DNA from: Alphaproteobacteria bacterium
GTDB taxonomy: Bacteria > Pseudomonadota > Gammaproteobacteria > JAGOUN01
NCBI GenBank assembly: GCA_021151585.1
Contig: JAGKWX010000002.1
Span: forward strand, 75,747-139,746
Length of the DNA: 64,000 nucleotides
Reading direction: 5' to 3'
Program-made: the position numbers
Shown: positions 39,001 to 48,000 of the stretch, in pieces
Layout of the letters: the number at the start of each line of letters is the position of its first letter
Numbering within the stretch: position 1 is the first letter of the stretch

Positions 39001-42000
39001 TCAACTTTTCTTCCAAACGCTGAACAGTTAACGTTAACTGTTCAATACGCTCCTGCGAGCGTTCTAGAATTTTTTTTTGCACCTCAAAATCTTCTCGTGT
39101 CACTACATCCATTTTCTCAAAAACAGATTGCAAAACTGCACGAATATTTTTTTGCGTATCTTCTTTTAATGCATGTATATCGTGCGGCAAAACAGAAGAA
39201 ATTTTCGTCATTAAATCATCAATGAACGCCGGCTTCATTATAAATCCTCCATCATGTTAGGCATCGCCCGGGATGCCTTATGAATATTTTCATTGTAATA
39301 TCTTGTTTTAAATGCGCGCGAAGCGGCTTCAGCTTCACGGAAGACAGAAATATCACCGTTTTTAATGCCCATAGTAGCCGTCCACCAACCTGAAGGGTAG
39401 CAAGGCTGAGGAAACTGTAAGGTCACCACATCTGCAAAACCTGCTTTTTTCATATTACGATACATTGGCTTGATAATCGCATCCAAATGAAATAAAGGTG
39501 ATTCACTTTGATGCACAATCAAACCATTATCACGCAACATGCGGCAGCATTCTGCATAAAATTTATCAGTAAACAGACCTTCGCCAGGCCCTAAAGGATC
39601 GGTAGAATCAACAATAACGATATCAACCGAGTTTGCAGGCGCATCCTTCACCCACTGCACACCATCGCCAAAATAAAAATGTGCACGAGGATCGTTATTT
39701 GAATCGCATAACTCTGGAAAATATTGTTCTGCTAAGCGCGTAACACGCTCATCAATATCAATTTGCCATACAGAAGCAATGTCTTTATGTTTCAATACTT
39801 CTTTCAACGTGCCGCAGTCACCACCGCCGATAATAACCACATCTTTTGGATGAGGATGTGTAAAAATCGCAGGGTGAGACATCATTTCATGATACAAAAA
39901 ATTATCACGGCTGGTTAACATCGCAAAACCGTCAATCACCATTAATTTACCAAACGTTTCCGTTTCATAAATCTCAATTTTTTGATATGGCGTTTGCTCT
40001 TCGTGTAACTTCGCTTTAATTTTAAAGCCAAAAGCGGTATCTTGACCGGGATGTTCTTCGAAGAAATATTGGTTAAAATCCATACAAGCACTCTCTAAAT
40101 TGTTCACAAAAATCAAAAAAACGCAGGGGCAACCGCCTCTAGCAACCAAAACAAGCACACGAGCCTGTTTCCAGAATCAATCCACCTCACATGATGGTGA
40201 AATCTAGGATTATTGTAATGATTGCCTAATCAAAGAACAAACTATTTCTTTGGTTTTGATCAAATACTAACCAGAAAAACGATCGCCATGGCGACATAAA
40301 GCACCATGTGAACAATCAATATCGCGATCCACTACTTACCAAGCCTATGACTAAAATACTCATTTATACCCATAGGCTCCTAAGCCTCTATTGAAACATA
40401 GACGTGGCAAAAAACAATGCAATAATGGAAAAAAACATCACATACAGTGCCGGCCATAAAAGCATCTGCGTCGCACCCAATAAATAGCTCATCAATAGGG
40501 GGGCTGTGCCGCCGATTAAACTGTAAGTAATATTATAAGCAACCGACATCACTACCGCGCGATCTTCCAAGGGGGCTAATGCTACACTCAAGCCCGGCGC
40601 GACAGCCTTAATCATCGCGCTGGACATTGCTAATAGTAAAATAGCAAGGCCGTAAGCAAACCAAGAATGACCGTAAGCAAAAAGGTAATAGGCTGGAATG
40701 CTAAGAGTTATCAAAGAAATCAGTGATAAATAATAGATTTTTGTTCCTTGCCATTTATCCGCTAAGCGACCATATACAGGGATCAATATAATCAAACTAA
40801 GAATTAAAATTGTGTTAATTAAGAATCCTTGTTCAAAAGATAACTTGACAAATTTAGCAAAAAAAGTCGGCAAAAATGCAACGCCAACATAACTAATTGC
40901 AGCTAATGGCGTGTTGAGCAGAAAAATAGCAAGCATATTTTTCTTATACTTCTTAACAAAACCCCATGAATTATTTTCTATACGTTCTGATTTTTTTAAT
41001 GCAAGAAAAACAGGCGTCTCGGCAACATTAAGTCGCAAATACATGCCGATTAGCGCAATCATACCACCAACAAGAAAAGGAAGTCTCCACCCCCAACGCA
41101 TAAAAAAATCATGGTTATGCGATAATAGCATAATAAATAAAGATGCGATTAAAGCGCCTATCATCATTCCCATCCAAGCCAAACTTCCAGAAAAAAAGTA
41201 ATTTTTCTTACTTGCATGCTCAGACAAAAAAATCATGGAAACACTAAATTCTCCACCGCAGGAAAATCCTTGCAATAATCGCAAGATTAATAAAAAAAAC
41301 GGGGCCATAAAACCAATAGTTTGATAGGTTGGCAAACACCCCATTAAAAATGTTGCTGCCGCCATAGACATTAAAGAAATAAAAAACGCCGCTTTACGCC
41401 CTTTTCTATCTGCCAACCAACCAAAAAGCAGGCCACCAAAAGGACGACTCAAAAAACCAATCGCAAATATGGTGAATACACCAATAACACCCGTTAGAGC
41501 GCTGTGTTGCGGGAAAAACAATATCGCAAAAACCGGGCCAAGAAACCCGTACAAACTAAAATCGTACCATTCTAAAATTTCGCCGATAACACTAGCAATA
41601 TACAGTTTTGTTGTTGACATGGCATACTTCTTAAATCATCTGACAAGAATCAGCAACGGTGAATATAGGATACTACGTCGATTGCTTAGCAGCGGATGAC
41701 GAGGGCGTAACCCTAATGTTAGAAGAGGAATCGCTGCCGCAAGAGGCAAGAGCAAGCCGCCACTAAAGAAAATCGCCGCCCCAATGCCAAGACACAATAA
41801 CCAAAACCAAGCATTTTTAAGGAAACAGTTTTTACTCATCAACCACTGCCACATAACTTTCTCGCTTTATCTTAGTACATACTGAGCGGTCACCTCGAAT
41901 CAGGGCACCTAAGCTCATCATATACACTTGAAATTTTAGCATAGTGTGATCAGTTTTCATACTCATCCTAACCTAAGCTCAACCTACAACCACCCTATTC

Positions 42001-45000: not shown

Positions 45001-48000
45001 CCGCAGCAAGTGCCAGAAGAGGAATCGCTGCCGCAAGAGGCAAGAGTAAACCGCCACTAAAGAAAATCGCCGCCCCAATGCCAAGAAACAATAACCAAAA
45101 CCAAGCATTTTTAAGAAAACAGTTTTTACTCATCAACCACTGCCACATAACTTTCTCGCTTTATCTTAGTACATACTGAGCGGTCACCTCGAATCAGGGC
45201 GCCTAAGCTCATCATATACACTTGAAATTTTAGCATAGTGTGATCAGTTTTCATACTCATTTGCGCCCAAGCCATTAACTGATCACGCAAGCATGTAACG
45301 AGCGTGAACGCGCAGCCGGCTCAGGCTGAAATACTCCCAAGCTCGCCGCTGGCGCTGTATAGAATGTGTTCGAAACATCAGAGCGCCCTTCCTGCTGGAC
45401 ATTCTGTCGCTTCAACTCAGCTACCTGGGCACTTAGATCTAGCACTTGTTTATCCCTTACTTTATCCTCAGCTTCTTTTTTTGCTCTGTAAGCTGCATAC
45501 TCATCCTCTACCCTCTTCTTTCCATCCTCTAGCTCCTTATTTTTATCCTCTAGCCCCTTATTTTTCTCTTGAGCGCGATCAAGTTTTTTGCTTAACGCAA
45601 GCTCTCTCTCATTCAGCGGCCGAGCCGGTACTGTCGCAGTAGCCGTATGTGTCGGTATCACTTGCCGCCCACTTCCTGTATCCACAATCGATAATCGCTT
45701 GCTCTGTGACTCTGATTCCAACACTTGACGCCAATGATCAGGTGGCAAGTTTTGCCAAGCGCCCACTTTTTTGAGGTGCAGATTCAATTTTTTTGAAAAT
45801 TTGTCCATTAAAACCTTGAGGCGCGAGCCATCCCGCCACACGGGGACTTGCTTCTCTCTGTTCTTAATGAGCGTATCGACCAAGCCTAAATAAGCATAAT
45901 AATGACTCAAATACACCGGAAGATAGCGGCTCAACCCCTTGAGTTGTTCGACATTCTCGTGTCGATTTTCCCTAATCTTAGAACTACGGTACCATGTGCC
46001 AAAAAAGAAATTAAGCCAAGAAGTCTCTTCAGTCATAAATATTTCATGATACTTATTGAGCTCGGCTTCAAAATCCTTAATATCTGTAGCGAATGCTTCT
46101 CTAGTGTTAGGCTCATTATTAAATGTTTCAAATAACATCACCACGAGAGCAATATGTACCCATTCTGCTTGTTCTTCAGAAATATTTTTGACCAATTGAT
46201 AACCTTGCAATAAGGGACCATTCAATAAATTTTGCCAATGAGGTAGCGCGCCACTATCCAATAGATAATACAGATGATTAGCCCGCTTTTTTAAGGCGTC
46301 CGGTCTCTGTTCCGCAGGCAACTCCGAGACTAAGGGCAAGCTCGCGACCACATGATCTACCAAACTCTGATCTTGATAGGTCGCGTCCGGATGTAATCCT
46401 TGATGAAGCAGTTGCATTACCGTCTGAGTCAGCAATGGGTACCAACGAGTACTCATGGCTGTAAAAAAACGCCCCCAGCTTACCGCGGTAACGCCATCAG
46501 CATGTAAACTTTCCTCTACAAAACTATTTCTCTCCTGATGCGGCCACTCGCTCCAAAGATGATGCGTATCATCAAATCGGCAAAATAAACGTTCACAGGC
46601 AGGTCTATACCATGAGCTGATCTGTGCTGAAACGCCCAATTTAGAGCCTGCTGCCTTGAATTGCCCGGCGGCGAGATTTTGAAGGACGAGTTCTACTACT
46701 TCTTTAGGTTGCTGCTTAAAACATGAGTCGAAATGACGTTTAAAATCATCAACCAGCCAAGTGATGGCATAACGCATAAACAATTGTTTTCGCTCAATCT
46801 CAAAGTACCACACCAGCTCCTGCGCAACCTCGTACAGCTTAGATGCTGCCAAGGCAAGTTTCATATTTTTTTTGATAGTTTCAGTTCTTAATACAGCGGG
46901 CTTCTCAGCAACCGGCGCGATGCCAGGCTCAACACGATATTCTGTATACGCTGCTAAAGCAGGGTGAGCAATCACCAGCCTCTCAAGATCGGAAAACTCT
47001 TCTCTATTTACAATCTCAACTGAGAAATAATGATTCGTATTGATACAGCCCAAGACAATTATTTGAGTATTCTCAACTCTTGGCTTGAAAATCCGAAGAG
47101 GACGATCTGCTTGCGAGTAAAGAATGACCATCGTGACATTCAATGCACGGGCCATGGCATGCGCAACTTCTTCTCCAACCGCTGCTTCATCTCTCTCTAG
47201 GCTTGCAAGATAGGCAAGTTTTTCTGCTTCTGTATCACCATCGATCAACGTCAAATAATACGAAGAGTGGCCTTGCAGTTCTCGTACGGCTTCGCGACGC
47301 AAATCAAGATGACAGTCTGCCTCGCCTGTCTCCTTATTGAATGCATCAGGGTGAATCTGATGAGCCAAGGCGCTAAAAAAACTGTTACCATCTTGTTTAA
47401 CTTCTTGAATAACTAAGCCATAGTTCTCGGGCTGCTGTTTCAGCGCTGTTCCATGTGTCGCTTGCACATCCTCCACAGCATGAGGCGATAAACTTGCCGC
47501 ATCCGTTACATCAGCATGGCTAGCTTCAGGGATAATACTGTCGCTCGCCTGCAGGACAAAATCTGCTGCTGGCTTGGTCGCAGCTTCACTCTCAATAGCC
47601 AAGGTCGTCGCTTCATTCTTTGGTAATAATTCATTGAGAAGAATGTCTAAACGAAACTGATAACTTTCGGCATGAAACGTTTGTTGCAGCTCACGCTGTT
47701 TACTACATTCTGCTATCCGCTCTAGTTCCTTGGTCACACGCTCCAGGTGTTGATTCATCTCCTTACGCCAGAGATTAAACTGCTCTTGATATGTTTTCTT
47801 GCTCTTATCTTTTGACTGATTGTTGAAATAGTCTCGCAGAGAAGGTAATTGTTTTAGCCTCTCTTCTAGTTCACTTTTGTACTTAGCAAAAGTGAACTTG
47901 GCCGGCAAGCTATTAAGGTGACTTTTTGAGCGGCAAATAAATTCCCTATAGCGCCCCTCTGCTTCTGCCCAAAATGTCGCATCATAATCGCACCCAGCAC

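Follow-up and report, generated by a model that had tools for sequence, protein, structure and literature searches.

What does a long, nearly perfect direct repeat signify when one of its copies stands immediately upstream of a transporter gene? The window analysed here, a 64,000-nucleotide (nt) stretch of contig JAGKWX010000002.1, carries two 246-nt copies of one sequence: copy B is the 5′ region of a gene that encodes an orphan protein of 542 amino acids (aa), and copy A precedes a gene for a transporter of the major facilitator superfamily (MFS). The original prediction, made from this DNA alone, read the arrangement either as promoter capture with translational coupling or as the scars of a recombination that inserted, or can excise, the segment between the copies. 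We found that the repeat is real and its origin ordinary, a by-product of gene duplication that leaves current understanding unchallenged. Copy A and the 55 nt that follow it are probably what is left of a duplicate 542-aa gene, located at the edge of a 12-kb insertion. The locus is a worked example of a regulatory- or mobile-looking repeat that turns out to be the relic of a duplicated gene, with a history that can apparently still be read in the sequence: a deletion at a microhomology, a frameshift and then probable gene conversion.

Coordinates are window positions throughout, and the MFS, relic and orphan genes are all on the − strand. The features on which the argument turns are these:

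45015–45260, − strand: copy B, native to the 542-aa gene, of which it spans codons 1–44 and the preceding 112 nt, intergenic between the 2003-aa and 542-aa genes

41721–41966, − strand: copy A, with 5 mismatches to copy B

43520–45148, − strand: 542-aa gene, whose predicted product has a hydrophobic hairpin at the N-terminus, then a low-complexity linker and a remainder resembling a coiled coil; an orphan but for rare relatives of the hairpin

41666–41720, − strand: tail A, next to copy A without a gap and homologous (~80%) to part of the 542-aa gene 3′ end

43558–43612, − strand: tail B, the part of the 542-aa gene 3′ end that is homologous to tail A

45015–45025, − strand: ATTCCTCTTCT, the last 11 nt of the repeat and upstream partner of the proposed deletion microhomology

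43613–43622, − strand: TCCTTTTTCT, directly before tail B and downstream partner of the same microhomology

41636–41854, − strand: 72-codon open reading frame (ORF; protein P0122), in which the hairpin module is followed by a tail read out of frame and by 30 nt more; probably a gene relic

42012–43508, − strand: 498-aa orphan gene, between the repeat copies

45275–51286, − strand: 2003-aa orphan gene, upstream of copy B

40388–41620, − strand: MFS transporter gene (MHS/ProP-like), directly downstream of the relic

A repeat finder returned a single family of long direct repeats in the window, and base-by-base comparison of the two copies gave 5 mismatches in 246 nt (98.0% identity) at a start-to-start spacing of 3294 nt. 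blastn across the whole window matched the copies to each other at E = 2e-120 and found no third. The mismatches (41907, 41822, 41793, 41756 and 41753 in copy A numbering) leave runs of identity of 59, 84, 28, 36, 2 and 32 nt. One is non-coding, among 112 non-coding nt, three are synonymous and one exchanges C21/F21. Copy B starts 14 nt past the stop codon of the 2003-aa gene and consists of 112 nt 5′ of the 542-aa ATG (45148) followed by 134 coding nt (44 codons and 2 nt), which agrees with its earlier description as the native 5′ region and first 44 codons of that gene. The distance of 100 nt from the end of copy A to the MFS ATG (41620) was also as described. In the order of transcription, the 2003-aa ORF (51286–45275) is followed by the 542-aa (45148–43520) and 498-aa (43508–42012) genes, the 72-codon ORF (41854–41636), the MFS gene (41620–40388) and speE. 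The 72-codon ORF exists as reported, with its stop codon 15 nt, rather than the claimed 16, from the MFS ATG. The membrane hairpin ascribed to it is plausible: residues ~16–48 are hydrophobic with an SGG turn, and the 72-aa product would keep both hydrophobic segments.

The nature of copy A is indicated by what follows it. Tail A (41720–41666, 55 nt) aligns with tail B (43612–43558) at a local score of 44 (z ~11); shuffled sequences scored 19.7 ± 2.2 with a maximum of 29, and 0 of 500 reached 44. Copy A and tail A keep the order and orientation of the matching ends of the 542-aa gene, with which they are colinear, and the homology of the tail ends ~38 nt before the 542-aa stop codon. The junction between copy A and tail A falls on a short direct repeat that is seen at both breakpoints of the parent gene, as ATTCCTCTTCT upstream and TCCTTTTTCT downstream; in a second strain (contig L009, described below) the downstream site is the exact 11-mer ATTCCTCTTCT. 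A deletion between the two sites would have removed 1402 nt (remainder 1 when divided by 3), and tail A is therefore read within the 72-codon ORF in a different frame from that of the 542-aa gene. Because the tail matches the 3′ end of the 542-aa gene, the junction lies on a microhomology and the frame is lost, we favour the interpretation that the 72-codon ORF is an internally deleted, frameshifted duplicate of the 542-aa gene. A profile search with an alignment of the hairpin module found only one database protein that resembles the 72-aa product, P0122, which is the product itself, and exact look-ups of the 542-aa and 72-aa proteins returned no record.

In the mechanism that we propose, a second 542-aa gene copy would have lost 1402 nt, from codon 45 to ~90 nt before the stop codon, by deletion between ATTCCTCTTCT direct repeats, and the resulting shift of frame would have created the chimeric 72-codon ORF that stops 15 nt ahead of the MFS start. 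An insertion of ~12.3 kb, specific to this lineage, would have split an ancestral divergent pair of rsmG (gidB) and MFS genes and left the relic at its MFS-proximal edge. Gene conversion would hold the 246-nt block, which is long enough for homologous recombination, alike in the two copies while the 55-nt tail drifts, and the MFS gene would be transcribed by read-through from upstream or from a promoter-like site in copy A, with the relic ORF as an accidental leader. Relics of duplicated genes that arise by deletion between short direct repeats, through slipped misalignment or microhomology, occur in the decay of bacterial genomes. The relic described here resembles them in its colinearity with the 5′ and 3′ ends of an intact neighbour, its 8–11-nt direct-repeat junction, its frameshift and, in the databases searched, the lack of independent homologues; unlike them, it has a 5′ block that stays at 98% while the tail is at ~80%, and it stands at an insertion boundary before a core-type gene.

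The original prediction named an assembly artefact as its own undoing, and a repeat that was falsely duplicated or mis-joined deserves to be considered in that short reads resolve a 246-nt repeat poorly. We compared the window with an independent assembly of run SRR13740832 (Logan contigs, k = 31, retrieved by exact-protein look-ups). In this assembly, the contig with the 2003-aa gene (L010) stops at 45231, a second contig (L002) spans 45044..41937 and the contig with the MFS gene (L001) begins at 41750, each ending in the repeat. Together the three carry all four repeat junctions, and every contig break is exactly 30 nt (k−1) inside the repeat, as expected of a de Bruijn graph with two different flanks on each side of a repeat. 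The Logan contigs confirm the junctions and not the assignment of the five single-nucleotide differences to copy A or copy B. A second sample (SRR24540863) yielded a contig (L009) that is 96.1% identical to window positions 44663–41937 and terminates at the identical base, 41937, at the 5′ edge of copy A; it shares with the window both the junction of the spacer downstream of the 498-aa gene to copy A and the branching at that point. The repeat is almost certainly not an artefact. Because the same junction was found in a second strain that has diverged by ~4%, the arrangement of copy A is, to judge from these two strains, stable.

The same junctions bear on the proposal that the copies are recombination scars bounding a mobile or excisable 3.3-kb segment, in which lie the 498-aa gene and the remainder of the 542-aa gene; such scars would be att-like sites or would result from a circle that integrated by the Campbell mechanism. 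As attL and attR would, two 246-nt direct repeats bracket a segment of higher guanine–cytosine (GC) content, and the graph topology (X-R-Y-R-Z, where R is the repeat) also fits a circle together with a deleted chromosome. RecA requires a minimum length of identity, and several of the identity runs are long enough. Unlike attL and attR, however, the copies are non-identical, differing at 5 positions, are longer than typical att cores and consist of internal gene sequence, a putative promoter and 5′ coding sequence that belong to a gene within the segment and are not derived from a target. No integrase, recombinase or transposase lies between them, and the IS1380 relic (described below) is not part of the segment but 7 kb from it. 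On the insertion-scar model, copy A would not be expected to be followed by a diverged piece of the 542-aa 3′ end, attached through an 11-nt microhomology and with a frameshift, nor is the model favoured by the conservation of the junction in the ~4%-diverged strain. No empty site was found in relatives; the only related strain seen (L009) keeps the junction. We therefore regard an origin as scars or as the ends of an excisable element as very unlikely. RecA-mediated deletion or amplification of the 3.3-kb segment is possible in principle, and would remove or multiply the 542-aa and 498-aa genes; the persistence of the arrangement in two diverged strains argues that deletion between the repeats is rare or selected against.

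Copy A and tail A have diverged from the parent to different degrees: the repeat has 5 differences in 246 nt (2.0%) and the tail has 9 in 53 aligned positions (17%; Fisher p = 9e-5), along with two indels. Three-way alignment showed that most of the differences in the tail set tail A apart from tail B of both strains, and the duplicate is for this reason apparently older than the split of the strains. The 246-nt block has most probably been kept near-identical through gene conversion; the 55-nt tail would have drifted because it is too short for recombination and, in the donor, lies 1.4 kb from the block. The duplicate tuf genes and the rRNA operons of enterobacteria undergo concerted evolution by gene conversion. 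As in those systems, a contiguous block of homology is near-identical here and flanking homology too short for recombination diverges; unlike them, conversion is deduced here from one genome and a fragment of a second, and the block is short (246 nt).

The abrupt rise in divergence from 2% to 17%, with the block of high identity stopping exactly at the microhomology junction, could also have arisen without conversion. An older relic upstream of the MFS gene, diverged to the level of the ~80% tail, would then have had its 5′ part overwritten once by a fresh 246-nt block through template switching or patch repair, an illegitimate event with its join at the TTCT/ATTCCTCTTCT microhomology. Such an overwrite requires another breakpoint, itself unexplained, at the 5′ edge, and the flanks on that side have no significant homology (the 3′ ends of the 498-aa and 2003-aa genes; 35 of 1000 shuffles), and we consider it improbable, although the present data do not tell it apart from conversion of the whole contiguous block of homology.

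The setting of the relic was reconstructed from relatives, and involves four more features:

53955–54563, + strand: rsmG (gidB), which in relatives adjoins the MFS start in divergent orientation

41636–53954: insertion block, containing an IS1380 relic, a small PDDEXK_9 ORF, the 2003-aa, 542-aa and 498-aa orphan genes and the relic

51996–53848, − strand: IS1380-family element at the rsmG-proximal end of the insertion, with a transposase split into two ORFs (53808–53107 and 53084–52137)

41626–41635, − strand: TTTAAGAAGT, the sole recognisable remnant of the ancestral rsmG (gidB)/MFS junction, which marks the approximate left edge of the insertion

In two relatives (contigs L004/L005 and L007/L008), the MFS gene starts 4–8 nt from the start of the divergent rsmG, with parA beyond rsmG; downstream of the MFS gene, speE-BMFP-UPF0227 follow past 2–3 intervening genes, and parE is next in L007. 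The window keeps these outer genes, but its rsmG (start at 53955) and MFS (41620) genes are 12.3 kb apart. TTTAAGAAGT, 5 nt upstream of the MFS ATG, is common to the window and L007, where it overlaps the first rsmG codons; a match as good arose in 15 of 3000 shuffles, and in 13 of 1000 in a second test. Past ~15 nt, extension of this remnant was not significant against either L004 or the window's own rsmG side. In another relative (L012), rsmG directly faces speE without an MFS gene, and the rsmG/speE interval is on this evidence a variable zone in the lineage. The three orphan genes have GC contents of 44–49%, and the MFS gene and the IS1380 element 38%; the proteins of the three show no paralogy among one another.

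The closest homologues of the MFS protein (60–69% identity) are from uncultured gammaproteobacteria, and a contig scan of genomes with the MFS protein gave only an unrelated match at 29% identity. The contig of one relative encodes DotU, IcmF and DotH/IcmK. A 12-kb block of orphan, eukaryote-like genes has been placed precisely between a transporter gene and rsmG; the gammaproteobacterial lineage concerned is under-sampled, and a relative carries Dot/Icm-type genes.

ISEcp1/IS1380-type units carry adjacent genes by one-ended transposition. The insertion is like them in having an IS1380-family transposase at one end, reading toward the cargo; its C-terminal ORF scores 260.8 bits to NF033539, and the N-terminal part is in the second ORF. 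Candidate inverted repeats at 51996–52021 and 53823–53848 match at 19 of 26 positions. It departs from such units in these respects: its transposase gene is in two pieces, its flanks (AAAAT and TCAAA) show no target-site duplication, a search near 41.6 kb beside the MFS gene (allowing up to 8 mismatches in 26) found no surrogate right inverted repeat, and ~107 nt lie between rsmG and the candidate inverted repeat. The independent contig L010 begins within the element, at 52097, a start that points to more than one copy of the element in this genome.

Of the ancestral region upstream of the MFS gene, ~15 nt survive. Because the rest of that region is lost to the 12-kb insert, we infer that the gene is transcribed from inside the insertion. 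One further feature is relevant:

41933–41960, − strand: promoter-like site, ATGAAA-16-TAAAAT with an upstream TG, found by match to the consensus; an identical site lies in copy B at 45227–45254

This is the single promoter-like match in the 391-nt spacer between the 498-aa stop codon and the MFS ATG, and a scan of the − strand over the same interval found no terminator-like site. Copy A may in this way supply an MFS promoter, incidentally to its origin.

Adaptive promoter capture, the other explanation in the original prediction, goes further: copy A would have been selected as the MFS promoter, with a 72-codon leader coupled to MFS translation. It draws on the loss of the ancestral upstream region, as indicated by synteny, on the promoter-like site with both hexamers the same as in copy B and no terminator-like site after it, on the AAGAAG between the relic ORF stop codon and the MFS ATG 15 nt away, on the retention of the junction in two strains and on the synonymous nature of three of the four coding differences. 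Against this, the upstream genes are all co-oriented and have no predicted terminator, so that read-through would suffice without copy A; identity of 99% over 112 non-coding nt exceeds what a promoter needs and is better explained by gene conversion; the tail of the ORF is an out-of-frame remnant; and the structure of the relic needs no selection for this role. We consider promoter capture to be structurally plausible but unlikely, and coupling of MFS translation to the relic ORF is pure inference. Were capture to have occurred, a housekeeping-type transporter would be under the same control as an island gene.

A related proposal, that copy A (promoter and hairpin leader) was retained as an expression unit for the MFS gene after the insertion severed its upstream region, seems to us slightly less probable again. 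If true, a core osmolyte or metabolite transporter would be tied to the regulation of an effector-like island gene, and the 72-aa hairpin peptide might serve the transporter as a small partner in the membrane. Whichever element drives it, the locus offers a concrete, testable case in which an insertion would rewire a core gene, the expression of the transporter now depending on sequence of the insert.

Promoter capture by duplication, with a demonstrated effect on expression, is described for rnk-citT in the Cit+ lineage of the Escherichia coli long-term evolution experiment, where the junction came from a tandem duplication that included the transporter gene itself (Blount et al. 2012, summarised in PMC4718724). 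The window resembles rnk-citT in that a duplicated promoter-like region and 5′ end of another gene lie directly upstream of a co-oriented transporter gene. It differs in that the transporter gene is unduplicated, the original promoter is already upstream on the same strand and the promoter effect is predicted from sequence. The leader from copy A to the MFS gene matched no Rfam family, and its fold is not unusual (z = −0.2). A 21-nt inverted repeat, 81% complementary, pairs the promoter-like part of the repeat, at 41930–41950 (and 45224–45244 in copy B), with 41561–41581, in MFS codons 14–20, and falls in the chance range for the region.

Several points weigh against the interpretation of copy A and its tail as a duplicate-gene relic maintained in part by gene conversion. 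The second strain is represented by one 2.7-kb contig (L009), without its MFS side and its copy B. The order in which the duplication, the arrival of the 498-aa gene and the deletion occurred cannot be reconstructed, and if the 3294-nt unit had simply been duplicated in tandem, a second 498-aa gene would also have to have been lost. The 30 nt at 41665–41636, between tail A and the ancestral remnant, have no identified origin. The sole indication of gene conversion is the unequal divergence, part of which is explained by the fast evolution of the 542-aa gene: between the strains, its 3′ part has a synonymous divergence (dS) of ~5.5% and a ratio of non-synonymous to synonymous divergence (dN/dS) of ~1, with indels, compared with dS ~1.8% (one third of the 542-aa value) and dN/dS ~0.34 for the 498-aa gene. 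This fast evolution does not account for the 99% identity of the non-coding sequence. The excess of synonymous changes among the coding differences (3 of 4; hand-calculated binomial p ~0.05 from 4 changes, on the assumption of ~75% non-synonymous sites) could hint at constraint on copy A. As to the promoter, the total of promoter-like matches in the region is no higher than expected from shuffles.

The duplicated 44 codons appear to coincide with a small, rare membrane-hairpin module. Among 5.8 billion clustered proteins, no full-length homologue of the 542-aa protein was found, and neither it nor the 498-aa protein matched Pfam or NCBIfam. An exhaustive HMMER search returned three distant proteins that share only the N-terminal hairpin, CF[LV][KR]N.[WY]FW...GG...IP..., and a metagenome scan with the hairpin-module alignment returned only the locus of one of them, P0123. 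This 338-aa protein (L011, 7956–8972) contains three tandem hairpin copies encoded by 142-nt repeats that are 78–87% identical, and the module seems to be prone to duplication in other genomes too.

Differences between the strains in the 542-aa gene include indels, several of them in frame, such as a 21-nt repeat unit near 43980–44021 and a 15-nt deletion at 43635–43649. In the comparison of this gene with L009 (positions 1–1174), the first 21 nt of L009 are unmatched in the window, and the linker region may differ in the second strain. A terminator-like hairpin with a T-run (43631–43644, − strand) lies inside the 3′ end of the gene, just ahead of tail B; it is probably non-functional, because it is partly deleted in the second strain. 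Each repeat copy also contains a 44-codon ORF (41832–41966 and 45126–45290, both − strand) that starts precisely where the repeat starts and spans the ATG of the 72-codon ORF or of the 542-aa gene. In copy B a TTG extends this ORF further in the upstream direction. Lacking an obvious ribosome-binding site, the 44-codon ORF is unlikely to be a gene.

For the other proteins of the insertion, a metagenome scan with the 498-aa protein was empty, PDB sequence searches with the 2003-aa and 498-aa proteins gave no informative match, and tblastn against plasmids gave nothing informative. Residues ~1288–1430 of the 2003-aa protein form an OTU-like cysteine-protease segment with the motif DGNSFF, in which Ser replaces the usual Cys; a scan of the fragment by itself gave 23.9 bits against PF02338 (cut-off, 23.3). 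The similarity suggests that the protein may target eukaryotic hosts. A second stretch (residues ~310–480, GDGDCGY...NGNHF) gave a non-significant match to Otubain, and the C-terminus is coiled-coil-like, with 21-nt tandem units at 45502–45564.

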